From: Rhizaria sp. SCN 62-66 | Taxonomy: Eukaryota | Assembly: GCA_001724265.1 (NCBI GenBank) | Contig: MEDY01000063.1 | Span: forward strand, 1-64,000 | DNA length: 64,000 nt | Direction: 5' to 3' | Shown here: positions 1 through 57,271 of the stretch, piece after piece | Position numbering within the stretch: position 1 is the first letter of the stretch | Layout of the letters: the number at the start of each line of letters is the position of its first letter | Position numbers and translations under genes: made by a program | The notes under the pieces: model-generated | The model's database searches: none | What the model was told of the DNA's origin: nothing | Seen by the model: only the letters and a program-made list of their open reading frames with translations

Positions 1-1
1 C

Positions 2-4079: not shown

Positions 4080-4740
4080 GCCGTTGTCGGTCCGCTAACT
4101 GACGTCTTAGGCAACTGTTGCTTTAGTCAAAGTCGAACCCACTCGACGTCGTGCCACCTCCTTGCGTGGACGAAGACACACTGCCCCGAGTGACGCGAGC
4201 TTGTGCGGCGGTCACTGCGGGTCTCACGCGCTGCTCTTTGTTGATACGATGTGTATCTTTTACAAACAGCGCGCTGGCTCCGCAGCGTATGCTCTCTGAT
4301 GGTTCGGATCGCGCGCTATTGCGCCCATGTTGACACCCAGTCAGTCGCATAGCGACACTGGCTCCGTGGGCTGCGCGCGCCCCGTCCGAGCGCCGGCCCG
4401 CCGCTCCGCGACTACGCGATCTCACCACACACTTTCATAGCCAAAATTTGTTACAAATGTTTAGAGAGTTTCAAGAAACACCAGAAGCACTCCTACAATA
4501 CAAACGCATCTTTTCTTATTCTTTAATCTGTATATTTTCTGTTAGGTTTCTCTGTTTCTCTGCGCTGCTTTCTTTGCGACACATGTTAATTTAATGGTGA
4601 CATTAGTTAAACGAGTTTGAGCCGAAGCGCATCTACAATTTGTTGTTTATTTTGCTATTTTCTTCCTGTCCTATGTATACATTTAATATCTCAACCACTA
4701 ATTAAAGCATATTACGTCTGAAGCTCTCAGTCTACTCCCC

Positions 4741-7700: not shown

Positions 7701-10314
7701 GCCACACTGCTCGCCGCGGTGATATTCCCGCTGTGCGAGTGCGCGTGCGAGTGCGCGTGTGGATGCGTGTGTGCATAAGTGCTGCCGAGCGCGGCGGCGA
7801 GCGCGAGCGGCAGGGCCGGCGCGAGCGGGGACGTGCTGCCGAAGGGGTTCCCCAACGGCGCGGGGCACACCACGCGCACCCGCCGCGAATCCAGCGCCGG
7901 CTGCGGCGGCGGAGGCGGCTGCGGCGGCTGAGACTGAGACTCATGTGGCTGCGGGGACTGGGCACTGGAGCCCACGTGCGCGATAAAGGCGCTCGCGTCC
8001 GCGTCGTCGTCGTTGGGCCCGACGGTGTGCTGCCACCAGCCCTCGGCGCGCGGCGTCGCGGCCAGCAGCCGGGCCACCAGCGGCGCCGCGCCGGGGGCCG
8101 TGTCGTGGTTCTCTAGCCACTGCGCCACGGCCGCGCCACCCGGCAGCAGGCCGTGCGCCTGCGAGCGCCACCGCTGCGCCTGCAACTGTGTAGAGGGGGA
8201 CTGCGAGGGTAGTGGCAGGGCGCGGGCGTCGCGCGCGCACTCGAGAGCGACTGCGAAGCTCACGGCGGAGATGATGGCGCGCTCGGCGGCGGCCGCGGCA
8301 GCGACGGAGGCCGCCACGGACGCGACCGCAGCAGAGGCAGCAAAAACAGCTGCGCCGGGAGCAGTGCTACCGACAGCAGCAGTTGCGGCGGTGGTGTTGC
8401 TGTTGCTGGCGCAGTGGCGCGCAACGTTGCTGTGCACCGCGACGCTGACTGCCGCGGCGCTGCAGTCGGCCGTGACGGTCCGCGGCGGCAGCAGGTCGTC
8501 CAGTCCGCACACCAGCGCGCTCCCATCGTCGCCGCTCACCGCGCCCACTAAGCTCTGCTGCTGACAGTGCTCTTGTTCGAGTCCCCAGAGCTCCGCGGCG
8601 CGCGCGGCGAGCCAGAGCGCGTCGGCGGGCGAGTAGGCGGCGCAGGCGGCGCCCAGCGAAAGCAGCGGATCCAGCAGCGTCAGCACGCTAGCGCCGTGCG
8701 CGATGTCCGCGCCGCTCACCGCCACTGTCCCGCCCGCACTGGCGCTGCGGCCACTGGCGCTGCTGCTGCCACCGCCGTTGTTGTCGTGGTTGCAGTGCGC
8801 GGGCGGAAGCGGCCAGCGGCGCGCGAGCGAGTGCTGCGTGACCGAGGCGCCGTGTGACATCGAGGGCAGCACCACCACCGCGGGCACCGCCGCGTTGAGC
8901 GCGGCAGACGCAGACACGGACGCTGGCGCCGCGGCGGGACCCGCAGCAGGCGATCCTGCGGCACTTTGCTGCGACTGCTGCTGCGGCGGCGGCTGCTGAA
9001 GTTGTGACGGGTGTGGTTGCAGCTGCAGCGACGAGACCAGGGGCGCGAGCACCGCGGGCAGATGGGCCAGGTCCTGCGGCTCCACACTGTCCACCATCGC
9101 CTCGGGCTCGGGCTCGGGGTCCGGCTCCGCGAACGACTGCGCCACAGCCGCTGTCTGCGCGCGACTGTTGTTGCGGGTTGCGAGGGCCTGGGTTTGGTGC
9201 ATGTACTGCCGATACAGGCCGTGCCCGTGCGATGCGTTCGCCCCGCCGCCGCCGCCGCTGCCGTGGCCGTGCGCGTGCGCGCGATGGCACGACGGCCGGT
9301 GCGGCCAGGGCAGCGCGTACATGCCCACATTCGCACCGTTACTATCGCTACTATCACCATTGCTATTGTAGCTGTTATCGCTCACTGACGCCGCGCCAGC
9401 GCCCGCACCGGAGCCCGCGCCGGCGCCTACACTGGGCGCGAGCAGTGCGCTGTAGGCGAGGACGGCGAGCTGCTCGCGCGCGGCGCGCATGAGCCCGAGG
9501 GCGCGGTCGCCGGCGGCCGCTAGCGCGCGCGCGTCGACCAACGAGAGCGGCCCTGAGAGCAGCCGCGCGGGGGCGCTCGCACCGCCGCCGCTGCCGCTGC
9601 TGCCGGCGGTGGCGACGCTGCACCCGCTGTTGGCCTCAGTGAGCACGGCGACGAGCACGCGAGCGAATTCGGCAACGTCGCGCTTGGTCACCGCGGCCGC
9701 CCTGCCCGTGGCCAGCAGCGTGCACAGCCGCGGCGCGGGGGCCAGCGGCCGCGGCAGCACGCGCGCAAAGGGCGCGGCCTCGGTCAGGTCCAGGTACTGC
9801 ACCTCCAGCGCGGGCAGAGCCGCGGGGCTGACTGAGAGCGGGAACGGGCGGTTCAGCGCAACCTGTCACCGACGATAGCACAAACATGAGATACAACACC
9901 GTATATAAGTGAGAGTAGAGATAAAACGCAGTAGATGTGAAAGAAGTATATCAACATGACATCGTGAGTTAAAACTGTTGATATTTCATTTTGCGAAAGG
10001 TATACATCGGTTAGTGCTTGGTCTCTGCTGATCCATGTGCGACATACCCTTGCGAGGTGGAGGTTGCTGGGCAGCAGGATGGATAGATTGGGGATCGGCA
10101 GCGCCGGCTCGCTCACGGACACCGCAGGCAAAAGCGCAGCGCGGCGCGCGCGGTGCGGCTGCTGCCCGGCAGCGGCGTTAGCGGCCGTGGCGCTGGTGCT
10201 GAAGCTGCTGCGGCAAGGAGCAGTGACCGAGACAGAGGTGTGCGCAGTGCGTGTGTTCAGCGCGACGGCGGCACGCGGGGCAGCGCGGACGCGAGCAACG
10301 GCAGCAAAGAGCAT
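4741..10314 (-). CDS. MetX/Cys2-family homoserine/serine O-acyltransferase (alpha/beta hydrolase), about 1742 aa with huge low-complexity insertions and a probable mitochondrial presequence
   Basis: Exons 10314-10048, 9862-5673 and 5512-4741 (GT-AG introns, frame preserved). Family motifs occur in order: FPLS..LPALEVQY, EGWWQHTVGP, LDSRRVRVVC..LGNPFGSTSP, FPVVTPADQA..LLLAHLG, GASMGGMQAL (catalytic Ser), ARLVGTLAYR|SEFDARF, ECEAYM..YLAMSKLMD, GIREDALIP (Asp), HGHDAFL (His). Confidence 0.85.
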
Positions 10315-12612: not shown

Positions 12613-14040
<1,428 letters not shown>

Positions 14041-14646
14041 GGCCCCGTGATCCTGTCACTTGCACACGCGATTACAGCGAACGGAGCGAGGAGACGGGAG
14101 TTGTAGTGCTGGTGTGACTGAGAGAGCCTATTGCGACTTTGTGAGCACAGGTAGCGACATAGGTAGAGTGTTCAAAGGTGTGAGTAACGATGTTAAAACA
14201 AATGTTAAGCCAAATCACACAAAATGCAAGTTATTATTGTAACAACGGAGAGTTCACACCGGGCCAAAGTGATTTCGATAAGTGAACTTTCTTTCGAAAT
14301 TGATCGTCCAAGGAGCGGTTCGCAAAAAATATTTCAATAGCAAGACCACTGCTGGAACGAAACGGCCACACTATTGATTCCATTCCTGTACTTTGAAGAG
14401 TCCTCTTCTTGATTTATCAAAACAATAACCTTTTAAAAAAACGTGCATATTTTTTTGTTCACAAATGGGTTTCGCGTTTGACGATCTATTTCTACCGCAT
14501 CACCTCGGTTTCAGTCCCCAATCTCCACTCATCTTCGTTCCATCACCTCCATCCACACGTGTCTCCCCAGCCTTTTCCCTTCACGCATTTGCTTTTGCAT
14601 CACACCCACTCTAGGTGCAGTGTCACAACCAACTCGCTTCTCCGCT

Positions 14647-16989
14647 ATGAGCAGCAGCAGTAACCCCAAGAGCGGCGGCTCCGGCTCCTCTGGCTCGGCG
14701 CCGCCGGCCCCGCTGCCGCAGAAGGCGCCGCTGGCCAAGTTCCGCCCCGCGAACCCGCGCGTGGGCGACCGCATCTGCACCGAGATCAAGGGCCGGCCCT
14801 GGATTGCGGGCGCCAAGTTCGAGACGCCCGCGCTGTACCAGTCTCCACCTACAGACGTCGTCGCGGACCGGCTAGCGAAGCAGGGCCCCTGGTCGAACCC
14901 GCGGTCGAACCTGGGCACCGTCGTCGGCGCCTCGGCCAACCGGCGCGAACTCACCGTGCGGCTCGACGAGCGCCGCGACCAGAAGCCCCACAACGTGACG
15001 CTCGACGCACGCCTCGTTGTCGACGGCTCGGGCGGCCGCACCTTATCGAACCAGCAGGTCGGCCTTCTGATCGAGACCGTGGTTCGCGAGGAGAAGGCGC
15101 TCGAGCGCCTCCACGCCAGCCGCCTGCGCGAGGCCGCCGCCGCCGCGGACGCCGCCACGGCTGCAGCTGCCGCCGCTGCGGCCGCCGCGGCCACCGACGC
15201 CGAGGCTGAGGCCGCCGCGGCCGCGGCCGCCAACGCCAGCGCGACGGCCGCTGCGGCCGCGGCCGCGGCCGCGGCCGTGGTGGCGTCGCTGGTGGTGGCC
15301 GACCCGGCGGCGGTGGGCAACACGCTCCCGCTGGCCTCGGTTAAGGCGCAGGGCGAAGCCATCGCCTCCCGGCTCGCGCGCCGCCAGGCGGCCATCCAGA
15401 GCCAGAGTCACGGTTACAACCACGGTCTCAACAGCAGCGGCAGCGGTGCGCGGGGCGGCGTGGCCGCGCCGGCCAACGGCGAGGTGCTGGTGGTACGGGG
15501 CGACGACGGCACCGAGACGACGATCGTGGTGCCCTTCCATGTCTCGCAGATCACCGTCCTGCCTACAGGGCCCGCCACCGGCAGCGCCAACAACGAGACT
15601 GCGAGCGCCGGAGCCGCGGGCAGCGCGCCTGTTGCTGTGGCGGGCGCTAGCGGCGCCGCCCCGGCTTCCGTGGGTCTGGTCGCCGCGCCCTACGCTGCCC
15701 CGTACATGCCGCCCTCGTCCAACGGGCTGCAGTCGGAGTCGCAGGCGGCGCAGTACGCCGCGCTCATGTCCGGCGCTGGCTCGGCTGCCCACGCCCACGG
15801 TCACGGGCACTCTGCCGGCGCCGCTGCCGCCGCGGCCGCGCTGGCTGCCGTCGCGCCCCGACCCTCGTCGCGCGCGGGCCGCGTCCGGCCGCAGACGCCG
15901 GTGCTGTCCTTCGCCGCCGCGCCCACCGCGCCCGCCGCGCCCGCGCCCGCCGCCGCCGCTGTGTACAGCAACCACGCCGAGGCCAGCGCCGGCGCCCGGC
16001 ACAGCGGGTACAAGCCGCAGCCGCAGCCGCAGGCCCAGTACCAGGGCGCACAGTCGCAGTCTGCGGCCAGCAGGCGCGCCGCCACGGCATGGCTGGCCGC
16101 TGGCGCTGCTGACGCTGCTGGCTCTGAGCAATATGACGAGTACGCGCCGAGCAACGCAAGCACGCGCTCATTCATCAATAATAGCAGCTCCGCGAGTCAG
16201 AGCACTGGCGGCGGCTTTGCCAGCGCCGGCCGCCCTTGCACCCCATCCGGCCAGCCCATCACCTGGGTCCCAGCGCCGGCCCCCGCCCCCGCCTCCGCCC
16301 ATAGTAGCGCCCACACCGGTGCCGCGGCGCCGTCCGTACCGAGCAACAGCAACAGTGCGAGTGCAAATGCGAGCGTGAAGCGCAGCCAGACCGGCCGCCC
16401 CTCGGCCCGCGGCGCCGGCCACAGCAGGCCCCAGTCCGCCTTCGCCTTGGGCCCCAGCCACGCGCAGTCTCAGTCTCAGTCTCAGCAGCAGGGCGGCGGC
16501 TGGGGCGGCGGCCAAAACTCTTTCACCGCCTCCGGCCCAGTCTCTGGCCCCGCAGTCTCCGGCGGTTTCAGCGCTGTGCCGGGCCGTGCAGTGACCCCCG
16601 TGACCCCCGGGCTGGCGCTCAAGCACAACAGCACGGCGCGCCCCTCCAGCGCCCGATACGGCGCCGGGAGCAACGCGGCGTTCGGCGCGGCGTTCAGCGC
16701 GACCCAGCCCAGTAGCTCGTTCCTGCGCCAGGACTCGGCCGCGGTCGTCGCCACGGGCGCCGGCGGCGGGTACAGCGGCTTCTCGGGGACTTCAAGTGGG
16801 CTCGGCCCGCAGACCACGCCGCGGACCGTGGGCGGGGCCGTGGGGACCGTGGGTGCGGGGACCGGGAGCGCGAACCCCAAGCGCGCGAGCGGGGTCGGTG
16901 TGGGCCGCGCCCAGAACAGGACCGAGCGGCTCGACTTCCAGAACTTCATCTCGCCCGCCGCCACGGCTAGTGGCGGCGCTTACTACTGA
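14647..16989 (+). CDS. Hypothetical protein, 780 aa, intronless: globular N-terminal region plus an Ala/Gly/Ser-rich disordered tail
   Basis: Long GC3-biased ORF from ATG 14647 to TGA. The first roughly 150 aa are high complexity (RVGDRICTEIKGRPW..NLGTVVG..LTVRLD). The tail has repeated RPSS/RPQT/RPSA/RPQSA motifs. Confidence 0.75.
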   Translation: MSSSSNPKSGGSGSSGSAPPAPLPQKAPLAKFRPANPRVGDRICTEIKGRPWIAGAKFETPALYQSPPTDVVADRLAKQGPWSNPRSNLGTVVGASANRRELTVRLDERRDQKPHNVTLDARLVVDGSGGRTLSNQQVGLLIETVVREEKALERLHASRLREAAAAADAATAAAAAAAAAAATDAEAEAAAAAAANASATAAAAAAAAAAVVASLVVADPAAVGNTLPLASVKAQGEAIASRLARRQAAIQSQSHGYNHGLNSSGSGARGGVAAPANGEVLVVRGDDGTETTIVVPFHVSQITVLPTGPATGSANNETASAGAAGSAPVAVAGASGAAPASVGLVAAPYAAPYMPPSSNGLQSESQAAQYAALMSGAGSAAHAHGHGHSAGAAAAAAALAAVAPRPSSRAGRVRPQTPVLSFAAAPTAPAAPAPAAAAVYSNHAEASAGARHSGYKPQPQPQAQYQGAQSQSAASRRAATAWLAAGAADAAGSEQYDEYAPSNASTRSFINNSSSASQSTGGGFASAGRPCTPSGQPITWVPAPAPAPASAHSSAHTGAAAPSVPSNSNSASANASVKRSQTGRPSARGAGHSRPQSAFALGPSHAQSQSQSQQQGGGWGGGQNSFTASGPVSGPAVSGGFSAVPGRAVTPVTPGLALKHNSTARPSSARYGAGSNAAFGAAFSATQPSSSFLRQDSAAVVATGAGGGYSGFSGTSSGLGPQTTPRTVGGAVGTVGAGTGSANPKRASGVGVGRAQNRTERLDFQNFISPAATASGGAYY

Positions 16990-38461: not shown

Positions 38462-39664
38462 TCACATGCGGCCAGTTGCTTGGAACAGCCGGTTCCCGCT
38501 TGAGTGCCCGGCTAAGTACCCCTTAGCCGTCCGCCCGTCGCCACCGCCCACACCTACATTGCCGCCACCGCCCCCGTAGTGGTAGCCCCCCCCAGCTCCC
38601 TGCTGAGCACTGCCGCCGCCGCCGTAGCTGTGAAGGCTTGCGCCGACATTGCCGCTGTTGGCGTTGTTTTCGCTGTTGACGCTAGCGCCGCGCTGGCCGA
38701 AGAGACTGCCCACGGCGGCGCCCGGCCTCGGCGTCGCAGCCGTCGCCAGCTGACTGTGGGCGGCGAGGTGACTGTGAGCGGGGTGACCGTAGGCAGTCGC
38801 CGCGGCAGGGGTGGCGGCGCCGCCGCGGTAGAGGCCGAGCGCGCCGCCGCCGCCACCGCCGCCGCCCCCGCCTGTCGCCATAGGAGCATTGGCACCGGCG
38901 CTGGCGCTAGGGTTGGGGATGTTGCTGAGAGCGCGGGGCGTTTGGGCAGGGTTGTAGTGGTAGCCGCCGCCGTCGCCACCGCCACCGCCGCCGACAACAC
39001 CCTGCTGCTGCTGCTGCTGCTGGCTACGGAAGCCATAGCCGACGCTGCCGTTGTTGCTGCCGCCTGCAGGCGTCGCCGTGTTTGCACCGTAACTGTTGGC
39101 GGTCGTGGAGCTGCCACGGAAGCCGTGCACAGGCCTGTTGCTGTTGCCACCGTTGTTGTTGTTATTGTTGTTGTTGTACAGTGACGGCGTCGCGGCGCTT
39201 TTGTTGCCATAGCTGTTGCTGCTGCTGCTGCTGTTGTTGTTGTTGGGGGTCGAGACTGGGCCAGGGCCAGGGGTGGCCGCGGCAGAGTTCATCGCGGATC
39301 GGTACAAAGATAAGCCGCCACCGGTTCCACCGGCACCAGTGGCGCCCATGGCCTGCTGCTGGTGCTGACTGTGCTCGCGGTCGCGCTGCTCACGGTCGCG
39401 GCGGTACAGAGACGCACTCGACTGAGCCAGAGACTGCTGCTGCTGCTGACTGCAGTGATCGCTGCTCTGCCCGCTGTTGATATAACTGTGGCCGAGACTG
39501 TGGCCGTGGGCGTGCGTGAGCGCAAGTTGGCTGCCCGCCGCGGGCCCCGGGGCGTTGGCGCTCACGCCGACAGCGCCGTTGGCGGCGTTGCTGCCGGCGC
39601 TGACGCCGTGTCCGGCAGGGGCGGTGCGGGGCCGCGGGGCCGAGGGCACGACGAACGTGTTGCC

Positions 39665-39704
<40 letters not shown>

Positions 39705-41181
39705 TTGCTGCTGCTTTGGCCGCCGGGGATGGTGTTGGTGTCGGGGACGACCGACTCGAACATGCGCTGGAGGCGTTGCTTGGCCCTACACACGTCGCAG
39801 GCATAACACACCCACGAGACAAGCAAAGTTAGCACTTGGACACATCGCAAAATCACCATTCAAATACACGACAGGATAACACATCACAGCACAAAATGTC
39901 ACAGTATATCGAATATATGCAAAACACATGATGCAAAAAATGGTTCGCACATTGTTATTATTGCCCACGTACCGCGTGGTCTCGTCCAGGTCCGTCTCGA
40001 GTCGGTGCAGCTCGCGGGCCTGCGCCGCGCAGTCGCGGGCCTTGGCTGCACACTCGCGCTCCAGCGCGGCCACGCGGCCCGACTGCGCGCCCAGCTCGCT
40101 GCGGGCCGAGTCCTGAGCCGGCCGGGTGTGCATGGAGAGACAGACAGGTGGGCGGGTGATAGCGCGTGATGTGTTAGAGAATGATAATAAGGCAGTGTGG
40201 TGATGGCGAGAGAGAGTGTAACAGTGAGATTGAGTGTCAGAACGTGGGATATCAACTGAAACAGAGTACAAGAGTGTGACATCAAAGACAAGTTAGCGTT
40301 ACTTTGTTTGATTTTGCGTTGTATCGATTTGTTTATCTTAGTGTGTAACAACGTACCAGTTCTCTCTGGAGCGCAGCACGCTCCTAGGCCGCGGTGGCCG
40401 CGGCCGCCGCGGTGGCCGCCGCAGCCGCTGCAGCAACGGCCGCCGGCGTGGCTGTGTTCGCGGAAGCCGCGGCCGCGGCGGCAGAAGCCAGGTCGTGCTG
40501 AAGACGGGCGAGGTGCAAGGAGCGGTGGTAGTCCCAAAAGCCGCATGCGGTGTGCGCCAGCTCCAGGACTGCGGGGCGAAACGGGGAGGAAGAGTGAAAA
40601 GTGAGCAGATTTTATCGCTATATGAAGCGTTTTAGTCACCAAGAAGGCATTTTTCCAGGAGATGAAGAGAGAGTGGAACGTACTAGTGCCAGGCGCAAGG
40701 CCGTAGAGGACGCGGCGGACCTTGTTCGGGTCCAGGTTCAGCTGCTCAATGTCGGTGTCCCTGCAAAACGGAGAAAAAATTGTAAGAAAACACAGTGAGT
40801 GAAACAAAAATGAACGGTATCAAGGTCTATGTGATGAATAAAGGCTTTGGCTTGCGGAAATGAGTGACCGAGCCATGGTATGGAAACGAACCTCTGTAGC
40901 GAGCGGAAGCACGCAGGGCACTGCAAGACGGAGTGGTAGCTGAACGAAGCCTTAGCGCATTCGTTGCCTGGTGAGAAAAAAAGGAATCGACGGTGAGCGG
41001 GGAGTAGGCGCGGACGGTTCAAGTGGAAAGAGACTGGGAGTTTTGAGGACGTGAGGTGTGAAGCTGGCGAACCAGATAACGTACAGAAGATGTGGCTACA
41101 CGACGTCACCGCCGCGGCGGGTTCCGTCAAATTAGCGAAACACTTGTTGCAAGTCAGAAACTCGCTTTTAGTATCTCCCAT
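38462..41181 (-). CDS. HEI10: Meiotic RING E3 ligase HEI10/CCNB1IP1, 642 codons, with an in-frame TAG at codon 145
   Basis: Exons 41181-41085, 40967-40892, 40760-40684, 40568-40357, 40112-39973 and 39785-38462. RING (CNKC..VTSCSHIFC..C..CPAC), LYGLAPGTILELAHTACGFWDY, a coiled coil ending RAKQRLQRMFE, then a low-complexity tail. The TAG is at 40386-40384. Confidence 0.8.
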
Positions 41182-41655
41182 TTCCCATCAAAGGACGCAA
41201 AAACCAAGCAAAAATTCAAATGACCTCGAGACCATTTATTTTTCAAGTTGTACTTGACCCCGGTCAACAAAGACGAACACGAACACTCAGCCGACGACTT
41301 TGATATAGCGCGACCAAATTGAGACTTTTTGCGTTTTCATTTACATTTATGTATTAATATCATCAAATAAAAACACTTATGTTGTCAATTTTGTTACATA
41401 TACAAGCAGAATCGAGATAAAGCTGTTAAACACCAACAAAGTCTGAGCTTGTTTCATCGTTTCTGTTATCGACAGCTATCTCGTGTCTAACATCTCTACT
41501 TCTTCATACGTATCGAATATCATATTATTCTCTATCTATTGCCTTTCATCATGGCAATCACTGAGCTTCAAACTCATCTTCCATCCCATCCTAACTAATC
41601 GCTAGCACTGCTGCGACTGAAGCTCAGCTTAGGCTCTCGCACGCTGCTCAGTTTC

Positions 41656-44600
41656 TTACGCGAACTGCGCACCGAGGGGCTGGAGCGTCTTGCCGTCGTG
41701 CTGGAAGTTCTTGGCGGAGTTGTCGCGCACCTTGCAGTACTCGGTCACGGCGACGAACCAGGCGACCTTGGCGATGATACCGTTACCGATCTTGACCTGA
41801 GTGTCGAGCTCGCTGCGGCGCGCCACCTTCTCCTTCTCCGTGAAGCGCTCGTACTCGCGGCTCTGCTCCATGATCATCTTGGTCGTCTGCGCCGAAGCCA
41901 CAACCTCCTCGGCCACGCGCTTCAGGTTGCCCAGCACGCGGTCCAGCGAAGCCTTGTCCTTAAGCTTGAGCAGCAGCTCGACGCGGTTCTGCACCGCAGG
42001 CCAGTAGCGCCGGTACGCGTTGGCGCCCTCGCCCAGCGGCACCAGCCAGAAGTCCAGGATCATGCGCAGCGCGATCAGGATGTTCAGGCACAGCTGGATC
42101 TTGGGCGCATTCACGTGGTCCTTGAGCGTCGACACCAGCGCCATGCCGTCCTCCTCCTACACAGTGGCAGGTTCGCAAAGAAAGCGAATAAGACATATTG
42201 AGGTGAGATAAATGACAAATAGCGTAAAGATAAAGATACATATAGATATTGCAGTAGGCGACACACATATATAAAATTTAATTGACAGCACATGTTATAT
42301 ATATATATATATATATAAAACAAGGCGTACCTGCAGTTTCTTGGGCGAGTAGCGCGCGCGCGCCATGACCTCGCCGGCGTGGAGGTAGATGGTGCCCAGC
42401 GCCGAGGTGACCTTGATGAGGATGTGGTGGTACTGGTGGTGCCGCGCGACGAGCCGCGCCAGGTGGTGGTGCGCGAGGTTCTCCATGAGCACGCCGAGCA
42501 CCTCGCGGTCGGGCGCGAGCTTGGTGATGAGCGTGGCCACGCGTTCCAGCACGCGCGGGTGGTAGCGCTCCTGCCGCGGCGTGCTCGCGTCGAACGGCAC
42601 CAGGAAGTGGATCAGCTTGCGCGCCAGGTCCGGCTGCGTGAGCACCACGTAGGGCTCGGCGCGCAGCTTGTTGGTGTAGGCGACGGCGATGATGAGGTCG
42701 AGCGCGGCCTCAATCAGCTCCGACGAGCGCGACACGTAGACCCACCAGATGGCCATGCCGACGCCGCCCTTGGCAAAGATGGCCAGCTCGTGGCCCTGGC
42801 CCGCGAGCGCAGAGAGCGCCTGGAAGGCCCACGTCTTGAGGTAGAAGTTGCCGACCTTGACGAGGTTGATCAGCGGGTCCAACAGCAGCTCGTCGTTGAT
42901 CACCTTGCCGCCCGTCTGGATCTTGCGGCAGACGGCGCGCACGAGCTCCAGGTTGTAGAGCTTCGTCACCAGCACGGACCGGTAGAGCCGCGGGACGACG
43001 TTGAGGATGGCGGCGCGCTCCTCCTTGCGCGACTCGAGCTTCTCGAGCCGGCGCGCGCTGTTGTCGATGTATCCCGTGTCGATGAGCGTGCACAGGACCT
43101 CCTCGTTGCAGCTGAAGCCGTTAAGGATGTCAGTCTTGGCCATGCGCTCGACCACAGAGTCACACTGGATGAAGGGGAAACCCTGCGTCGACTTGGAGCT
43201 CGCCTTGGGCTTCTTCTTCATGTACAGAAGAAAGTCGATGATGCGGTCCACCGACCGGTCGTCGCTGCAGTCCGCGGTCACCAGCCTGCGAATAGAAAAG
43301 AAGCAATTACAATCCAAGGCGATATAGATATAGATTGAAGTGTAAGCAAAGGAATCTAGCATAATGCACGGTATGATCTTGGACTATATCGATGCAATTT
43401 GGTGCAATTGGGTGTTATATAATTTACGTACCTGCGCATGGTGAGTTCGTCGGGCAGGACTCCGCCGTCGACGCAGAAGGCGAAGTAGAGCGCAATGCGC
43501 GCGCGCCACTCCTCGCGGAGCGAGTAGCCGCTGCCCAGGTCCTCCTCGCCGCTCTCCAGGTTGACGTTACGCTTCGGTCCACCGTTAGCGCCGCCGCCGG
43601 CCCCGCCGGCCGCCGCGCCGCCCGCGCCCCCGCCGGAGCCCGCGCCGCCCGAGGCGCCGGTGAGCGTGAGGCCAACTTCCTGCTGCTGCTGCTCCTCCTC
43701 CTGCTCCAGCTCGGCCATCAGACGCACAATGATCGAGAGCGGGTCGGCAACGTCCTTGCCGGCGCCGCCCGCGCTGCCCGCCGCCGCGCCGCCGCTGCCG
43801 CCGGCGCCGCCCGCGCCCGCGCCCGCGCCGGTGCTGCCCTTGATCTTGGAGAGGACGGACTGGCAGAACTTGGTGGCGAGCTCGTAGCACTCGACGTCGA
43901 TGAAGCGCGTGCGCGGCACGACGCCCATGATGCTCGACTCGACCTCGGAGAGGAAGTCACGCGTCGACAGCCAGCGCAGCTGCGCGGGCGTGTAGAGCAG
44001 CGTATTTGCGCGCATCTGCATCAGCCAGCGGTCGTAGTAGGTCGGGTGCGAAGTGAGCGTCTTGAGCGTGTTGTAAGCCACCGTGCGCGCCGTGTTCTGC
44101 GTCAGGCTCTGGTGCTTGGCGTGGTAAGCCGCCTGCACCTCGTTCACGCCCTGCAGGTTCTTGGCCACGTGCTTGGCGTAGTCGACCAGGATCGTGTCCA
44201 TGTCGCGGTTCTGCCGCAGCCACGAGCGCCCGTGCTCCTTGAACGGCAGCGGCGCGACGGCCGGGCTCAGCGAGTCGACCAGCGTGTCGAGCGTGGACAT
44301 GAAATCGGGCAGCACCTTGAGCTTGGCGTTGCGCGGGCCGTAAAGCACAAACACCATGTCCTGGAACGTGTCTGCGAAGGGCGGCAGGAAGGCGCGGCGG
44401 CAGCCCATGACGCCGATCTGTCGGTGGGGCGTAAAGATGTGCACGCGGAAGCACGTCCACGTCGACTTGTCGCCCACGATGTTGGCTTTCTTGTGGTACA
44501 AGCCCTTCTCGGGGATGAAGTACTGGTCCTTGGTCACCTCCTGCGCCGTCAGGGCGTGCGCGATCGACTCGACCCAGAAGAAAAAGTCCAGGTTGCTCGT

Positions 44601-46036
44601 GCCCGCGGGCGTGACCTGCACGCCCGCGCCCACGCCGCCGCCGCTCTCGCCGCCGCCGCCGCCGCCGCCGCCGCTGTTGGTGGCGCCGATGCTGTCGGTG
44701 GCGGTCATGTTGAGGCCCAGCGCGTCGCGGCCGCGCGTGAGCGAGGCCAGGTCGGAGAGGTGCCGCGGCGAGTTAAACGTGGTGATGAGCACGGGGTTCT
44801 CGGCCACGCGCCCGCGGCGCTCGAGCGCGATCGTCTCGGAGCTGCGGATGACGTAGGTCGAGCAGGGTCGGTTCGGCAGCGCCTCGTAGCGGTCCACCAT
44901 CTCCTGCGGACCCATGAACATGTAGTCGGCGCGGTGAAACATCCGCAGCTGCGACATGTCGGGCGGCAGCCGCGCGGGCGCCATGTACTGGAACGCCGCG
45001 AGACGCGCGTCGAGCTCGCCGGAGCCCGTGGCGCCACCCGCGCCGCCGGAGCCCGCGGCGCCGCCCACGAGCGTGACGGCGGTCGATGCGGCGCGCTGCG
45101 AGACATCGAGCGAGGCGAAGCGCGTGGGCAGCGAGCTGGCCTCGTTGCGCGTCATCGTGGCGTTGATCTTGAAGCAGATGTGCAGGTTTTCGACGATCTG
45201 CTTGCGAAACGAGGCCGCAAAGCGCAGCGCGAAGGGCACATCGTAGGGCATCGAGTAGGGCGCCTCGGTGGTGGAGCCGTCGGCAGCAGTGAGGGTAGCG
45301 TTGCGGCCCGAGGCGGCCAGCCCGCCGTCAATGACCGCGATGCCCAGCCCGAAGACCTCCTCGCGCTGACGGTCCGCGACGACCTCGGTGAGCGCGTCGT
45401 AGGGCAGAGCCAGGATGATGTGCGGGTTCACCTGGTTCTCGCCGAAGCGGTACTGCGCGGGGATCGGGATGTACTGGCCCTGGATATCACAAAAGCAAAC
45501 AAAGCAACAACAACACAAAAACGAAGCGAAAATGAATGACAGAAATACAGCTGAATGTTAAAATGTACGCCCAACAAGTAGCGTTTATCATCTTTGTTGT
45601 GTGCTATTGGTTGAAGACGTACGGGCGGGGAGCCGGGTCCGAAGTTGGGCTTGAAGGGCGCCCAGCGCGCGAAGGGGTCGACAAGCAGGATCTCCTGCTC
45701 GCAGAAGCAGAGGTAGAGCTCGGGCGACTTGGTGAGGTCGACCTGCGAGGCGAGCGCCGTCGACGAGTACGGCGACGCGTTCTCCGACAGCTTGCGCACC
45801 TCCGTCAGCGTGTGCCGGAAGAGCACTTTGTGGAAGTAGCGCACCTTGTTGACGCCGCCAACCGCGCCGCCGCCGGCCGCGCCGCCGGGGCCGCCCGCCG
45901 CCGAGCCGGCGGCAGAGGTGAGGGCCAGAGCCGAGGACGGCTTCGAGGCGCCCGCGGCGGCGGCGGCGGAGGAGGTGTCATCGCGGCGGAGAAGCTTGTT
46001 CAGCGACGTGAGGCCGATGACTTCGGTCAGGGACAT
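41656..46036 (-). CDS. Large hypothetical protein, 1305 aa, with a C-terminal ARM/HEAT-like helical repeat region
   Basis: Exons 46036-45623, 45479-43432, 43285-42331 and 42156-41656; all GTACG...YAG introns preserve the frame. ARM-like segments include LLDPLINLVKVGNFYLKTWAFQALSALA and IFAKGGVGMAIWWV..LIEAALDLIIAVA. Confidence 0.8.
42296..42316. repeat. (AT)n microsatellite in an intron
   Basis: tatatatata... directly visible. Confidence 0.9.
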
Positions 46037-47880: not shown

Positions 47881-48425
47881 ACAGGCGCGTAGGCAGGCGG
47901 GAGCGCTGCGGTCGGTAGCTGATGGAGTGTGGTGGGGACTGTAGGTTTCGTCGGATAAGACACAAGGAAGACAGCGTAAAATGAGATTATAATTAGATAT
48001 ATATTGAGATAAGCCACGTTCAATTAAGAAATGCTTAAACACAGAGCATTTGACGATGATTGTACGCCAATACGATAGCTGTAAGTTGTGTTCGCTCCCA
48101 CTCATCGCGGCACGACCACAACGGGTCGGACAACGTGTGAGGCAAGCTCCAACGGCTATCTGGTGAGGCGACTTTCGTGAGTCTACAGCGCGATGAAACA
48201 TCCGACTAATCAAAAACAGCTTATATATTCATTGTTAGATTGTTATTTCAGTATGTACATTTTAATTGTATCCCACTGTGACGCTATATAACCCCACTTT
48301 GCCTATCTGTTTTCGCCCCTCTCAGCTCGTTTTCTTTAGCACTTCATCTCGATATCTTTCCCTCTCTCTGCACCAGCTTCCTCCGTGTCCCTACACGCCC
48401 AGGCGTTGTTTTAGCATACTTTTTT

Positions 48426-49964
48426 ATGTCGGGATATGACTTTCGCAACGCAGATGCCTCGTACGTTTCCCATCAGCGATATATTCCTTCATTCGTTCTT
48501 CTGCCACTCTTTCTCAACCACCCCCCTTTATCACATCACAGCACGCTCACTAGCGCTTTTCTTTCCCCACATTTCACGTTGTTTCTTTCCCAGCGGCACT
48601 GCGTATGACGAGACAGACGTGCACTTTGACGATTCAGGCGTGAACGCTGGCGGCGCAAACGGTGGCAGCGACCCTTCCCTTGCTAACAACGCCAACAACA
48701 ACACCAACACCAACGCATTCGGCGCTGGCGCTGGCGCTGGCACTGGCGGTTTTGGCGCTTCAGGTTCTTTTGCCGCTTTTGCTTCCAAGACGGCAACCAC
48801 GGCCCTACCCACTGCATCCGTCTTTAGCGCCAGCTCGAATCAGCAGCAGCCTGCAACGACCCCCACGGGCAGCTTCAGTGCTTTCCGCCCCGGCGCCACA
48901 GCCACTGGTGCAGGCACAGGCTCGGGCGCCATGACTACTGGAGGCATTGGTACTGGCGGCGCGCATAACTACGGCAGCGCGACAGGAAACAGCGCATTCG
49001 GGGGGCCTGTGCTGCCCTCTAGCAGCAGCAACACTAAGGCTCTCGGCTTTGGCGTTGGCGCTGGCGCTGGCACTGGCGCTGGCACTGGCGCTGGCGCTGC
49101 TGGTTTAGACGACCTGAACTTCGACGAAGAAACGGAAAACAACTATAACGACCACAATAACGACACCAATAACAATGTGGATGACGGCGACGATGGCGGC
49201 TACCGCGCAGACACGCGTCCTACCGGAACACACGGCGCCTATGCCGGGACTTATGGGGGCGCTAACCGCGCCGACTCGGGTAGCCGGTACGCGGGTTGGG
49301 GCCACAGCGGCAGCTACGGCGCCGGCTACGAGGACGACGACAATGGTAACAACGGCAACAATAACAACAACCACAACTATAACGAGGATGACGATGCCGC
49401 CGCCGCTCAGGCCGAGGAGGATGACTACAACAACGATCACTTCGACGACAACTACCATAACAACAACTTCAACACCAACGCTAATGCCAACCCGCACTCC
49501 AAGCCCGGCTTTGGCGCTGACGCTGGCGCTGGCGGCGGCGGTGGTGCTTTCGAGGACGATCTCGACGCGGACCTCTTTGGCGCTGCCACGGGCGGCTTGA
49601 TTTCCGTCAAGCCGGCCACCTTTGCGCACAGTCGCCTCCCTTCCAGTTCCGCCACGCCCGTACACAGCAAGGCCAACACGAACAGTATCGCAAACGCCGT
49701 GAGCGTCAACCCTGCTGCTCCTGCTCCTGCCCCTGCTGCTGTTGCTGCGAGCGCAACTCCAGCTCCAACTGCGACTGCCCCTGCTACCACTGGCGCTGGC
49801 GCTGACGCTGGCGTCGGCTCTATGAGTGTTGAGGAGCGGCGCAACTTGCTGCGGCAGCGGCGGCTGGAAGCGGCTGCCCGCGCCTCGGCCTATAACCATA
49901 ACAATGCTGCTGCCGATGGCGGCCATCAAGATGTCTATAGTAATGCCCAGTCACAATCGGAGTT

Positions 49965-49999
<35 letters not shown>

Positions 50000-52219
50000 G
50001 ACCGTCGACGGTGCCGTGGGGCAGGGATGGCGACGACAGCAATAACACAGAGGACAACTACAACAACAGCAACAACAACAATGCTGCTGCTGCTGCTGCT
50101 GCTGCTGGGGATGACCACTACGACAACAACAACAACGCTGGCGGCTTTGCTCATGCCCATAACGCCGACGCCGACGCTGCCGATCAAAGCTACGGTAACA
50201 ACAACGGCGGCGGCGGCGGCTGGGGCGACGCAGACGACTCTCTGCTCGACCTCCTCGGCGGCAGCAACGCCCAATTCAACGCGTCCAACGCCAACGCCAC
50301 CGGCCGCCGCAGCCACGCTCGAAACGCCCCCGCTGCCCCTGCGAGTGCTACTGTGGCGACTGCGCCCGCCCACGGCCAGCACGTCTCGCTTGGCGCCCCT
50401 TCCTACGCCCCCTCAGCCGCCCCCTCAGTCGCTGCTGCCGCTGCGGCTGCTGCGCGCGCGGGTCCGTCGGGCGCCCAGATCGCCGCCGCCGTGGCCGCCG
50501 CGCTGGCCGCGGCCCCCGCCGAGACGGCGCGGTCGTTCAGCCAGGCCGCGGCGCTGGGGGCTGGCGTGCCCCCGGCGGTCGCGGCCGCGGTGGCCGCGGG
50601 CGGGGACAGCCTCGAGAGCGTGGTCTGGGGGGACCACATCGACGCCAAGGGCACCGCAGGCGTCGCAACGTGGTGTCGCTGGCTCGATCTCACGCCCAGA
50701 GACCCCGCGCACCAGGTAGGTTTCTAAGAATGACATGCGCTAAGCAGAACACCAATAGGGATACGCAAGCAAAGATATGCACATTTCGAGTTTAAAGCAA
50801 GACATCGTATAACTCGTATTTAATCGCACATTCGGATGACAATTTATTTTTATTACATCTCATCTTCATCCCCATTTATTATCTCTTGCCATTTGCTATC
50901 TCCTCTTTCAGCCGTACCTGCGGTACGCGGTGCGCGCGGCGCAGTGCACGCTGCCGCCCGCGTTTGAATTCGACCCCAGCACGCGCGCGTACCGGCGGCT
51001 GGCCGACGGCAAGGCCAAGTTCCTCCACCCCAAAGTGGGGACCTTCCTCACCAAGCTCCAGGTGCGCAAGAACAAAGACGCCGCCAAGGCCGAGGCCGCC
51101 GCCGCCGCCGCCTTAGGGGGCGCGACACCCGCGGCCGTGGCGGCGGCGGGCGGCCTAACTTCGTCGACGGGGCTGGACTCCCAGTCGCTGGGCGCGGAGG
51201 CGAGTATTCTGCTGTCGAGCGTGCTGGAGGAAGTCGACCACGGTCACTTCGAGAGCTTCAGCAACAACAATCACAATATCAACAATAATGTGACAATGGC
51301 GGGCATTGTCCACGAGGATGAGGAGCAGAGCACTACCAACACCGCTGCCGCTGCTGCCGCCGCTCCTGCAACTGCGCGTGCAATGGGGACGAACGCGCCA
51401 CCGCGCTTCCCCGCGCCCAAGGAGGGCGTGTTTGACTCCGCGGGCCCCTTGTTTCCTACGGACCCATACTCGTATAACAACAACAATATCGCCATCAACA
51501 ACAACAATGGCGAGGCTGCCGCTGCCGCTGCCGCTGTTGGGACTACCAACGCTGCTGCGGCGGCCCGCGCCCTGACCCTCAAGGCCAGCAGCGGCGGCAA
51601 CGTCAACATCAACAACGCTAACGCATTCGCGGACTTGAACGGCCCCGCTGCGAACGCTACCACCGGCTCCGCCGTCGCCGTTGGCTCTGGCGCTGGCTCC
51701 AGCCCCGCAGACTGCGTCAACGCCAGCTCCAGCGTGAACGCTAACGCCACCGCGGGCGTAGCGAACGCCGCGGGCGTGGTGGTGAATCCTGACGCCTCGC
51801 CGGTGGGCTTCGGCGACCGCACGGCGACCTCGCTGACGTCGGCCTTCGCCTTCAACCAGCAGCACGCCTGGGCCAACACGGCCAACGTCACGGCGACTGC
51901 GCTCGAGTCGCGTCCGCCGACAGCCACGCACCACCAACACAACTACTCCCAGTTCAGCTATGGCAATAACAACATCAACAACAATATCGGGGGAGCACGC
52001 GAGGGTGCGCGTGACGCTCCCGCCGTGGGCAACATCAACCCGTTTGCGCAGCCTCCGTCGTCGGCGCGTGCGCTGGCACTGGCGGCCGTGGCCGAGGTGT
52101 CCTCCCCGTCCGTCGGCGGCGGCTTAACTCCAGCACAGGGCGGCCTGATTTCGAGAAACATCAACGCCGCGACTGGCCCTGCTGCTGCTGCTGCAAGTGA
52201 TGATTACTACAGCACGAAT

Positions 52220-52257
<38 letters not shown>

Positions 52258-55200
52258 CGCGTATAACAGTTCGAGCAATAACTTCAACAACTTCAACGAC
52301 TCCGGCGCCTCGGCCTCTGCGGAGGCGATGATTCTGCAGCGCACGCAGCTGCAGACGGCCGTCGCCAGCGCTGCCGCCGCGACTAGTGCCCCTGCTCCGG
52401 TCGCCGCTGCTGCTGTTGAGACGAGCTCTATCCCTGTCACCGTCAATCCCACAACTGGCGTAAACGCTCCGACTGCTGCGAGTTTGGCATCGATTCCCGA
52501 GAGTCCTGGCTACTTGCCTCAGCAGCAGCAACAGGGCTACACTCCGCAGCAGCAACAGCCGAGCAACATCTTCGGCCAGCAGTACCAGCAGTATCAGCAG
52601 CAGCAGCCGTATTCCGCCCACTACTCTCAATCTCCGGCCCAGTGCCCCCATCTCACCGGCCCACAGCCACAGTTGCAGTCGCCGTCGCAGTCCTCGTCCT
52701 GCGCCGGCTGCAGCGAGCGCGACGCCGTCATTGCGCGTCTTATCCTCGGCCGCGGCAACCCCGCCCCTGTGCTCGCCGACGCCGCTAATGCTGCCGCCGT
52801 TTCTAACGCGAGCGCGAGCGGATGGCCGCGACCGCTGTCGGTGCCGCTATCGGGGCTGCTGCGTTCGCTGATGCCCGTCTACAACGGCGGCGCGGGCCCC
52901 AACGGCGCAGCTGACCCCGGCTCGAACGGCGCCAGCGCGTTGGCCACGAGTGGTAATGGAAACGGCGGCGGTGGCGCGACCTACGCGCTCTCGATTCACG
53001 CCGCGACGACCGCCGCCGCGCTGCGAGCGCTGCAAGACAAGCTGACGGCGACGACCGCGGCGACGGACGCCGCGGCGACGGCGCGCGTGGCGCGGCAGGA
53101 GGCATTGCTGGCCGCGCGCGAGCAGCGCATCGACGCTGAGGCCGCAGCGCTCCGCGACGCACAGGTATGGAAGCCGATAACAATTGCCTTATAGATAATT
53201 AAACAAGCCTGAATCCAGCACACTATGTTTATTTTGTGTGATGCTCTAAATTTAAGTTGGTATAAATATATCAAAAATCTCACATGTATGTCTCTAATTC
53301 TTATCTTTTGTATCTTTCTTATGTTTCCCCTCCTCCAGTCGCGCTTTGCCGCCGAGCAGGCCGCGGTGGCCCAGGAGCGCGCCGCACTCGCCCGCGCGCG
53401 CTCCGAGCTTGAGGCTCAGGCGCGCGGGGTGGCCGCGGACGCCGCGTCGCTGCGCGCGGCGGCTTCGGCCGCGGCGAGCCGGCAGTCGGAGCAAGCACAG
53501 CAGCTCCACGCCGAGGCGGAGGCCGTTCGGTACGTTTACTCGCGCGACGCGAACACAAGATATATTCTTGATTTGAAATTGACATGTGATTATATATCTA
53601 TCTTCAATATGCGCGGTGTTTTTTGATATCTTTTCGACTTTACAGACCAGTATCTTCTCCTGTGATGTATCTCTCATTTCCAACTGTTGTGTTTTGTTCT
53701 TCCGCACTGCAGCCGCACCCGCGACGAAGACGCCGCGACCGTGCTTGCGCTGTCGGACCAACTGGCCTCACTGCGCGCCGAGCACACGGCGGCCGTGGCG
53801 CAGCTGGAGAGCGACCGCGCGGCCTCCGAGGTCACCTTCGCAGCCACCAAGCAGGCCGCCGCCGAGCTGTTGACGCGGGCCACCTCGGAGGCCGAGGCCC
53901 GGCTGGCCGCGGCGGCCGCGGCGGAGCGCCAGGTTGCCGCCGCGCGCGCCGCGTCCGCCGCCGAAGCCGCTGCGGCCGCCGAGGCCGTCGCGGCCGCGGA
54001 GGCGCTGATGCTGCGGACGCGCGAGGATTCCGCGGCCGTGGCGGCGATGGCGGGCGAGGCGCGCGCGCGGCAGTCGCAGGCGGCCGAGGCCGAGGCTGCA
54101 CTGGGCGCGCGCGAGGCTGCCTGGGCCGCGGCGCATGCCGAGGCCGTTGCCGAGGTGCAGCGGCGCATCGACCGCGTCGAGGTCGAGAAGCGCGCGATGC
54201 TCATCCGGCAGGGCCGCGACAGGGCCTTCGCGCGCATCGCCGCCTCAGGCAGCGGCAACAACAACAACGGCGGCACTGGCGGTGCTGAGAGCGGCGGCGC
54301 GGTCGCTTTCGGCGCGATTGGCAACAATAATAATATCAGCAGCGCGAACGAGTACGTGGTGGACGCGGGCGCGCTCATCACGAGCATGCCGCCGTGGGCG
54401 GCGCTCGACGGGGTCTCCGCGCACGCGCACGATCTTCAGAGCGGGCCTGTGGTCGTGGTCGGCGAGCCCGGTACCCTCCTGGGGGCTCGGCTCTCCGCTG
54501 CGGCCACTGTCGCTGCCGCTGCAGCCGCGAACGCCAACAAGGCCGCTGCCGCTGCTATGCCCTCTGCCAGTATCGGCGAGTCCCGCATCAAGGTGATTGA
54601 GAACGACGACGACGACGCCAGCACCACCACCAACGCTGCCGGCGCTAAGACCGCGAGCAGCAGTCGCAGCGTCGCCATTCCTGCCAGCTCCAGCAAATCA
54701 TCTAAGGGGGGTCGGTCTAAGGGCTCTGCTGCGGCGTCTAAGCGCCGCGGCGGCGCCGGCTCTAAGTACGCGCCCAGCGGCAACAACAGCAGCGAGGGCG
54801 AGTGCGACAGCGACTGTGACATGGACTGCGACCGCCACATAGGCCTCGGCAGTCACGGCTACGCACACGGCCACAGCTACGGGTACATCGACCGCTACGG
54901 CGACACGGAGGACAAGGACCGGCTTGCCGAGGCGGCCGAGGCCGTGCTGAGCGGCATGCGCCGCACCCAGGCCCTCGTGACCTCCGCCCTGGACCGGGCC
55001 CGCGCCGCCCGGGCGCGCGCGCGGGCCAGCAACAGCAACAGCAGCGGCGGCGCCGGGTATTCAGACCGCGCGCGGGGCACTTACATGTCCCCCGGCGGCA
55101 CTTACCTGTCGCCGGGCCAGGGCAGAGCGGCGGTGCGCATCCACGACGAGGCCCAGAGCCACAGCGACGTCAACAGTGACAGCGAGCGCGGCTACGACAG

Positions 55201-57271
55201 CGGCTACAACAGCGGCGGCGACGACGACGGCGACGACGGTGGCAACGGGCCCGAGAGCGAGAACATGCAGCTGGTCGCCAAGTGGCTGCGGCTCGCGCGG
55301 GGCGAGGCGGACACGGGCGCCGTGACCGCTAGTGCCGCTGACACAAACTCTAGGCACCGCAGCAACAGTCGCAGCGGCCATAACAGCGACAGCGACGACC
55401 ACGGCCACTACAGCTATAACAACAGCAACAAGCCCAGGCCTGCGAAGTCTTCCTACTACAAAAGCGGTAGCACGAGTCATAGCGAGTGCGACGAGTATGA
55501 CAGCGGCCGCAGCGAGCACAAGAACGACTACCTCCACAGCCGCGGCGGCAGCCGCAGGAACAGCAACAGCAACAGCAACGCTGCGAACAAGCAGCAGCAG
55601 CTGTACAACAACGGGTATGTGTTTGGCAGTGCTGGTTTCGGCGCTGTTGTCGGCAACGCGAGAGCTGCCTCTAAGTACCCCGAGTCTAAGTACCCTGGCG
55701 GTGCGAGCATCGAGGTACTTAGTGACTCGTCGCCCCCGTATTCCCCTGTCAGGAACAACTCTAACAGCGGCGGGACTGAGGGGGCTAAGCGCACCTCTAG
55801 AGAGACTGCCACGAAGCAGCAGGAGCAGATGCAGCAGCCGCCTTACAACGCCTTTGCTGGCATGACCGGCGCGGACGGCGCGTTTGAGCTCCGCCGCATT
55901 GCTCAGGCGCGCAACCACCTCGATGTGAAGCCGCAAGCTGGGGCAGAAGGTAAGCCACCCCTGCACCCCACTTCCCCTCGCCACTACCAGGGCAGCACTG
56001 GCGGTAGCAACAGGAACGGCTCCTCTCGCAAGCACGCCAGTAGTCCCCGCCGCAATCGCCGTGAGCGTGAGTCGAGTGACCGTGAGCGCAACCCCCGTGT
56101 GGGGACTGTGACCGGCGAGGTTGTCGCCGCGCGCGCTGCCGCCAAGGCCCTGCGTGCGCCCAGCAGCAGCGACGCCGCGGGCTACGATGCTCTCGCCGTT
56201 CCCGACGCGACTAATGCGGGCGCCGGCGAGGGCGAGAGTGAGGGCAACTTGTCGTTCCTGCCTTCGTTGGCGACCGACACGACCTCGTCGAGCGACATGA
56301 CTGTCCCGCTCACTGCTGCTGCGAACAATCACGCGAGCAGTGACAGTAACCGCCCGAACAACGCTAAGGGCAGCAATGCCCACGCGAACCTGTACGGTGG
56401 CAGCAACAATGCGCGTCTGTACGACAACTACGTGATTGAGGAGCAGACTGAGCTCCAGACGCTCGAGTCCAGCAAAAGCGACGTCGAAAACAAGCGTGCT
56501 CTGGGCGGCACTAAGGCTGCCGACGTCAAGGTGAACGTCAGCGGCGGCGAGGACGCGGGTGTCGATGACAGTGACACTGACAACCCATCGCTGATGTCCC
56601 AGCTGCGCTTCACTGCGCAGTCCGGGCTCTCGATCTCAGAGGTGCCGCCCACAAACACAGTGAACAACAACGCTCACAATAAGGGTGCATACGGCAAGAT
56701 GAGCGCTTCAACCGTGTTTTCGGCGGCCGGCGCGAGCGGCTTCAAGCCCGCGGCAAGCCCCCGCAACAGCCAAACCACGTCGCCGAACGCGCTCAAGCCC
56801 ACTCTGGCGACCGCCGCCGCCGGTACGACCCCCCCGCGGACGTCGTCCTCCGCCGGCTCGCACGGCCTGAGTCCCCCGACGCAGACGCAGCCCGCGGGCG
56901 CTAACTTGGACGAGTCGCGCGCGCTGAGCGCCCTGGAGCCGCTGGATGCGAGCATCGACGCCGCCGCGGCGGGGTTCGCGGCTGCGCAGTCCGCCGCCGG
57001 CGCGGGGGCGGCCAGCGCGAGCGCGGTCATCGACGCGTATCTGGCCAACCTCAGGAGCGGCAACGCCTCGGCCAACGGCAACGACAATGCCAGCGCTGCC
57101 GAGAAGCGCGAGCATGAGCGTGAGCGGGGCGACAAAGCGCGCCCCAGCAAGCGCAACGTCGTCTCGCCTGGAGGCCAGAGCCACTTGGACACGCTTGAGA
57201 GCCTGTCTGTGGGCGCCAGCAGCAGCTCTACAAGCAATGAGGGCGGCGTCACTTTCGACGAGGCTGACTAA
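48426..57271 (+). CDS. Giant low-complexity/coiled-coil protein, 2719 aa, with an internal CEP164-like degenerate WW module
   Basis: Exons 48426-48460, 48594-50715, 50912-53164, 53339-53529 and 53713-57271; the total is divisible by 3. The spliced module is VATWCRWLDLTPRDPAHQ|PYLRYAVRAAQCTLPPAFEF..YRRLADGKAKFLHP, followed later by an Ala-rich coiled coil. Confidence 0.75.
52220..52258 (+). repeat. (AAC)n coding microsatellite (poly-Asn)
   Basis: About 13 perfect AAC units. Confidence 0.9.

Follow-up and report, generated by a model that had tools for sequence, protein, structure and literature searches.

An in-frame TAG codon in a HEI10-like RING-finger gene of a wastewater protist is genuine and probably represents an ordinary nonsense allele

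Results

Organization of the window and of the HEI10-like gene

The window, that is, the whole 64-kb stretch of DNA analysed here, is eukaryotic and consists of GC-rich exons (~0.6-0.75 GC, GC3 ~0.8-0.95) interleaved with AT-rich introns and spacers. Its recognised genes encode a papain-family protease, a class II aminoacyl-tRNA synthetase, the proteasome subunit RPN1, Leo1, a mitochondrial carrier and a Bms1-like GTPase. One unnamed sequence is related to the RPN1 exon at 63% identity, and the best named matches of this exon are from oomycetes, at 38-39%; taxonomy in the Atlas went no deeper than Eukaryota. The public runs in which a search located the stretch are metagenomes of bioreactors, wastewater and activated sludge belonging to eight studies. 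Several very long exons (670-1390 codons; 5606-9865, 14482-16986, 43359-45557 and 48415-57268) carry a strong coding signal and match no Pfam family; these are lineage-specific or fast-evolving proteins.

One gene of the window, at 12616-14008 on the minus strand, contains an extra A within an (AAC)n run at about 13048-13063, by which poly-Asn becomes poly-Gln and the frame is shifted. The coding frames on either side of the run are one base apart, with no intron between them, and the lesion is either a real frameshift or a microsatellite assembly slip.

The gene of main concern here lies on the minus strand and is made up of six exons, which join into an unbroken 641-codon frame from ATG to TGA in which codon 145 is TAG. 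Its parts are as follows.

41085..41181, minus strand: exon 1, with the ATG at 41181-41179 and the first half of the RING finger
40892..40967, minus strand: exon 2, second half of the RING finger (...CPAC...), donor GTTCGT
40684..40760, minus strand: exon 3, donor GTACGT
40357..40568, minus strand: exon 4 (212 nt), containing the TAG; acceptor CAG (...cgcag), donor GTACGT
40387..40485, minus strand: alanine-rich low-complexity tract of GCC/GCG repeats, codons 112-144, immediately upstream of the TAG
40384..40386, minus strand: the TAG, in frame as codon 145 of 641; plus-strand reading CTA; next base G
39973..40112, minus strand: exon 5, charged helical or coiled-coil-like segment, donor GTACGT
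38465..39785, minus strand: exon 6, 440-codon Ser/Asn/Gln/Gly-rich tail, open to the TGA at 38464-38462

The five introns of the gene have GTACGT (four cases) or GTTCGT (one case) as donor and CAG or TAG as acceptor, and all of them keep the frame. Exon 4 has a GC content of 75%, as in the other exons, and the introns are AT-rich. An exon at 40568-40357 with a CAG acceptor, a GTACGT donor and an in-frame TAG had been described in the original prediction, and the same exon was found again here, with the TAG at codon 145 of 641. Around this codon exon 4 reads ...ATAAAAATAA-TAG-ERAALQREL, and the 496 codons located 3′ of the TAG are fully open, spanning two more introns.

When searched alone against Pfam, exon 1 matched zf-RING_5 (E 6.8e-5, 23.2 bits, profile positions 1-24 of 43), which is below the 27.9-bit cut-off; the match is partial, an intron splits the RING domain, and the exons were queried singly. 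Exon 2, queried as a 24-aa piece, had no match in Pfam, and exon 5 gave a weak match to TolA_bind_tri (E 0.09). In the Atlas, exon 1 returned RING-type clusters alone, with scores of 0.79-0.86 that are to be read as leads. No orthologue was found by searching residues 1-40 of exon 4 against longer proteins, nor by a word-based search with residues 1-230 of the tail, and a HMMER search with the whole 440-residue low-complexity tail against 1.84 billion protein representatives gave nothing at E <= 0.001. Scans of genome-contig and viral-contig collections yielded no match either.

The spacing of the Cys/His motifs at the N terminus is reminiscent of CCNB1IP1 (HEI10). The likeness to this family may extend to an N-terminal RING finger (here split over the first exons, with the partial zf-RING_5 match below the Pfam cut-off) that is followed by a short helix, by a helical segment rich in charged residues and by a long, disordered tail rich in Ser. 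The gene differs from HEI10/CCNB1IP1 in that a 33-residue alanine tract and the TAG are located between the RING finger and the helical segment, and in that its tail is without a relative among the 1.84 billion representatives. We therefore refer to the gene as HEI10-like, and its role in meiosis is putative.

Introns and splicing around the TAG

Introns were modelled junction by junction, giving a set of 33 that combines 28 of 32 earlier junction rows with the five junctions of the HEI10-like gene; the junction row of gene 12616-14008 was left out of the set, being a frameshift and not an intron. Intron lengths fall between 115 and 244 nt (n=33; e.g. 43431-43286 and 59626-59465), and the donor is nearly invariant, with GTACGY in 25 of the 33 introns, A at position +3 in 31, C at +4 in 30 and G at +5 in 32. 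Three introns of the neighbouring gene are confirmed by the intron-less contig of a relative (L001, 84% protein identity). Together with the narrow range of intron lengths, the donor signature could serve to bin contigs of this organism.

Scores of the 33 donors range from 6.6 to 15.7 bits. Upstream of the TAG, in comparison, the only GT dinucleotides in exon 4 are those at 40505 and 40437, scoring -7.0 and -7.7 bits, respectively, which bears out the earlier statement that no consensus donor would allow the TAG to be skipped. Since exon 4 is 212 nt long, skipping it as a whole would shift the frame. Acceptors downstream of the TAG, and frameshifting, were checked by hand and offered no frame-keeping route, and neither of the motifs ATATCC and GTATCC, sought as marks of a U12-type intron, is present in exon 4. 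As far as can be predicted from the sequence, there is no splicing route by which the TAG would be avoided.

The TAG codon in independent assemblies

The TAG is covered by contigs from three runs that were assembled independently and come from three studies (X1, X3 and X4). The contig of X1, possibly the source run, spans 39751-44616 at a depth of about 34 and has 0 differences from the window across the TAG; the same holds for the contigs of X3 (39751-40693) and X4 (39751-40387, stopping one base beyond the TAG). X1 and X3 display no alternative letter at the TAG, and for X4, as for the RNA library X6, the comparison covers the differences as listed, a minor variant being possible there. The same TAG allele was found in samples dated 2015-2025, that is, ten years apart, and it is thus not a fleeting variant. 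The TAG at 40384..40386 is genuine in genomic DNA, and the miscall that had been considered in the original prediction is refuted, as three runs of three studies agree on the letters. Many unrelated GC-rich contigs pile up on the alanine tract, with loose ends at 40397.

X6 is a polyA RNA library, from which two contigs are listed on the gene, one covering 39957-40247 (over exon 5) and the other 40688-40910 (through intron 2). Both pass unspliced from an exon into an intron, which makes them uninformative on the mature message, and they look like DNA carry-over or pre-mRNA. Among the X6 contigs listed none covers 40357-40568, and thus none of them lies over the TAG.

Terminator usage and in-frame TAG codons

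Eighteen gene ends of the window were checked, a small sample that leaves out a 19th, small gene near 1590-2000, and they consist of 10 TAA, 8 TGA and no TAG. The absence of TAG terminators noted earlier (then with 11 TAA and 8 TGA) therefore stands. TAGs that close long ORFs (at 53192, 62847, 35373 and 32691) belong to introns or UTRs and are preceded by canonical donors. TAA is the most frequent stop codon despite a GC3 of about 0.85-0.9. The ratio of TAA to TAG at gene ends is 10:0, even though glutamine codons have G over A at the third position by about 13:1 (CAG 441, CAA 34). In eukaryotes TAG typically makes up 20-25% of stops. With such a share, the probability of finding no TAG among 18 ends is 0.018 to 0.006, and it rises to 0.15 if the share is 10%. 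On the count of these 18 genes, TAG is in some way disfavoured at gene ends here.

As a sense codon, TAG is scarcely found at all. One in-frame TAG was counted across 52 coding segments, which together hold 14,041 sense codons, a recount that agrees with the single case in about 14,300 codons given by the original prediction. Scans for further in-frame TAGs flanked by coding signal returned antisense-frame matches only, and the 1253-codon ORF of the relative (L001) contains no TAG. If TAG stood to CAG as TTG does to CTG (46:494), about 41 TAG codons would be expected at equilibrium. The window thus has 0.05 in-frame TAG per gene (one in 19 genes), whereas the two UAG-only lineages described in PMC5304391 have 204 in 126 genes and 384 in 71 genes. 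This amounts to 1.6 to 5.4 per gene, and most of these codons fall on positions where Gln or Leu is conserved. Those lineages end their genes in UAA and UGA (104+15 and 56+15 cases), and the same paper reports for Guttulinopsis a standard code with an extreme stop-codon skew. A further case of UAG-only reassignment in which UAA and UGA are kept as stops is reported in PMC11687900.

An established reassignment of UAG does not fit these data and is rejected, because one TAG was found against about 41 expected and because the known lineages are rich in UAG. Likewise, its absence from the remaining sense codons means that TAG is not a working sense codon. It was correctly stated beforehand that UAG-only reassignments exist in protists, and the Gln and Leu cases are to be found in PMC5304391; the proposal of such a reassignment here fails in its established form. 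A glutamine had been suggested by the likeness to AAVA-Q-ERAAL in the gene at 53339. The likeness itself was recovered (...AVAQERAAL...), but the glutamine does not follow from it, since both sequences are Ala/Glu/Arg-rich helical repeats and cannot tell which residue would be meant. ARAGORN detected no tRNA gene in the whole 64-kb window, and hence none with a CUA anticodon there. The gene for eRF1 does not lie in the window either.

Sequence and structural context of the TAG

The TAG is placed at the end of the lineage-specific poly-alanine tract and not at a conserved residue. It is followed by G, as are 13 of the 18 true terminators (TAA-G in 8/10 and TGA-G in 5/8; e.g. 4077-4080 and 41658-41655), so that its context is not leaky. 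In the spliced mRNA, the folding of the 60-120 nt located 3′ of the TAG is ordinary, with z values of -0.1 to -1.0 relative to shuffles and rank 20 among 123 segments of the same mRNA. The programmed readthrough put forward in the original prediction finds in the UAG-G context and in these z values neither a leaky context nor a stimulatory structure.

The codon is contained in a CCTAGG palindrome and falls in a linker of 2 nt that separates two hairpins, both GC-rich, with stems of 8 and 7 base pairs (40365-40410, minus strand); no function is implied by this arrangement.

Discussion

Alternative explanations for the in-frame TAG

The probabilities expressed below are judgements, not computed values, formed from rough priors and three observations (a single in-frame TAG, no TAG among the terminators, and a verified base), and they leave a remainder unassigned. 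An error of sequencing or assembly would be conceivable at a codon that borders a GC-rich repeat, in a window with at least one apparent frameshift elsewhere, but its probability is practically negligible given that the assemblies of three runs from three studies are identical, with 0 differences, and that X1 has no alternative letter at a depth of about 34. A wrong gene model, in which an unrecognised intron, an alternative exon or another gene boundary would put the TAG outside the mature frame, is very unlikely. It could draw on the two RNA-library contigs listed on the gene, both unspliced, and on the exon-wise searches, which gave no orthologue to compare. Against it, all five introns combine consensus donors with YAG acceptors and preservation of the frame, exon 4 is exon-like in its GC content of 75%, no candidate donor occurs 5′ of the TAG, and skipping of exon 4 shifts the frame. 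Furthermore, the shortest of the 33 introns measures 115 nt, as compared to just 212 nt for the entire exon 4, and the intron type is confirmed next door by the intron-less contig of the relative. Under the standard code, the codon could also be recoded at this site only, through readthrough by a near-cognate tRNA or through RNA editing of UAG to UGG, which we regard as quite unlikely. The 496 intact downstream codons speak for it, as does the prediction that the codon's U and A stay unpaired (P 0.96 to 1.0) where 2 nt of linker separate two strong hairpins, with a U preceding the A; a meiotic gene would moreover be the expected type of target. For readthrough, the difficulties are that the UAG-G context is that of the window's own terminators, that the downstream structure is not above shuffles, and that the first hairpin begins inside the codon, whereas a stimulatory element usually begins several bases 3′ of the stop. 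In addition, readthrough in the middle of a gene, with three quarters of the protein beyond the stop, is rare outside viruses. Editing is an attractive, if unsupported, idea for a gene possibly acting in meiosis only. Restorative A-to-I editing of premature UAG is known from sexual-stage genes of Fusarium and Neurospora (PMC10776026 and PMC11156358), and the situation here shares with that of the filamentous ascomycetes a premature UAG, a gene that may be restricted to the sexual phase and a frame that is otherwise intact. It differs in that the A is located in the linker between the hairpins, whereas fungal editing prefers sites in hairpin loops (PMC11156358), and in that a fungal affinity of the organism is unsupported, the best named RPN1 matches being those to oomycetes (38-39%).

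A more far-reaching possibility is that UAG no longer acts as a terminator in this uncultured, GC-rich, non-ciliate eukaryote, being unassigned or weakly decoded as an amino acid while a UAG-only reassignment is in its early phase, and that the TAG of the HEI10-like gene is translated. That is, UAG might have been purged from gene ends, be poorly read by eRF1 and be starting to return as a rare sense codon. We consider this unlikely. The 0/18 TAG ends, the predominance of TAA despite a strong GC3 bias, the position of the lone in-frame TAG within an otherwise intact 641-codon gene and the genuineness of the base are all in its favour, and UAG-only reassignments that keep UAA and UGA as stops do exist (PMC5304391 and PMC11687900). 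With Iotanema spirale (UAG=Gln), the rhizarian exLh (UAG=Leu) and the phyllopharyngean ciliates, the case shares gene ends in UAA and UGA only (10+8 here) and the presence of an in-frame UAG. In the first two, UAGs are many and occupy mainly conserved Gln or Leu positions, whereas there is one in 19 genes here, at a non-conserved site that is, as a single case, silent on the amino acid meant. Also opposed to an early code change are the 1 TAG in 14,041 codons versus about 41 expected, the 0.05 in-frame UAG per gene versus 1.6 to 5.4 in the known cases (PMC5304391), the TAG-free 1253-codon ORF of the relative and the lack of tRNA genes within the window. Moreover, 18 terminators are few, and in the same source Guttulinopsis has skewed stop codons under the standard code.

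An ordinary nonsense allele as the best explanation

We consider that the TAG is a real premature stop under the standard code and that the gene is a null or weak allele, a reading to which we assign a probability of roughly 0.6. With the codon usage of the window, single-base changes can turn sense codons into stop codons by 3087 routes, of which 2274 (74%) yield TAG, as do 79% of the transitions, so that a random nonsense mutation would look exactly like codon 145. The original prediction had held a mutation to be at least as likely as recoding; it is now the favoured explanation, in view of this share of routes, the G at +4 and the ordinary downstream fold. The apparent single-base lesion in gene 12616-14008 indicates, furthermore, that disrupted genes are not rare in the assembly or in the organism.

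In the nonsense-allele scenario, the TAG would have arisen by one substitution from a sense codon, for which CAG, GAG, AAG and TCG, all abundant here, are candidates. Translation would end after 144 residues, that is, after the RING finger and the short helix, and the truncated product would lack the coiled-coil-like segment and the 440-residue tail. As the TAG is located upstream of two exon junctions, the mRNA would probably also be subject to nonsense-mediated decay. A HEI10-like E3 ligase gene would accordingly be present as an allele that is null or strongly weakened and, if the HEI10 assignment is right, the loss would concern a meiotic crossover factor that may be dispensable to a clonally growing wastewater protist. 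The remainder of the gene being intact, the lesion would have to be recent. More generally, the 496 open codons located 3′ of the TAG imply either that they are still used or that the lesion is young.

The case resembles nonsense alleles and young unitary pseudogenes in that a lone stop affects an intact gene, by the commonest mutational route, at a non-conserved site and in a normal termination context. It differs from them in that the allele is found ten years apart and in three studies, and in that TAG serves nowhere else in the window to end a gene. Both differences count against a nonsense allele, namely the absence of TAG from 18 gene ends (p 0.006 to 0.018 at a share of 20-25%, with TAA:TAG at 10:0) and the persistence of the allele from 2015 to 2025, and so do the 496 intact codons 3′ of the TAG and, for the meiotic role, the tentative HEI10 assignment.

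If the TAG belongs to a plain nonsense allele, the finding is an ordinary one, although it would mean that, over at least ten years and in keeping with clonal growth, a wastewater protist lineage has carried a broken copy of what is probably a gene for meiotic crossover. If instead UAG is at an early stage of reassignment, the organism would be an intermediate on the codon-capture route and the TAG of the HEI10-like gene would be among the first examples. Nuclear UAG-only reassignments are, to our knowledge, very rare, and we know of no early intermediate observed in a nuclear genome. What retains value in any case is the combination of a verified in-frame TAG with the lack of TAG terminators, given that the GC3 bias should favour TAG over TAA. 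Full metagenome assemblies containing the organism already exist, and contigs of 70-190 kb occur in the runs concerned.

Relatives of the neighbouring gene

A metagenome scan with the gene next to the HEI10-like gene recovered a single contig of a relative, L001, which is 4128 nt long and stops short of the HEI10-like gene itself. Positions 1-4128 of this contig correspond to 46036-41659 of the window and form a single ORF of 1253 codons, at the 84% protein identity given above and without the three introns of the window gene; L001 is probably a transcript. Its ORF is terminated by TAA, as is the window gene. A second, diverged relative, with ~1 difference per 9 bases, is represented in X4 and X6 by contigs on the neighbouring gene (41716-41785, 42043-42109 and 44773-44868), and these diverged contigs occur alongside contigs that are identical to the window.
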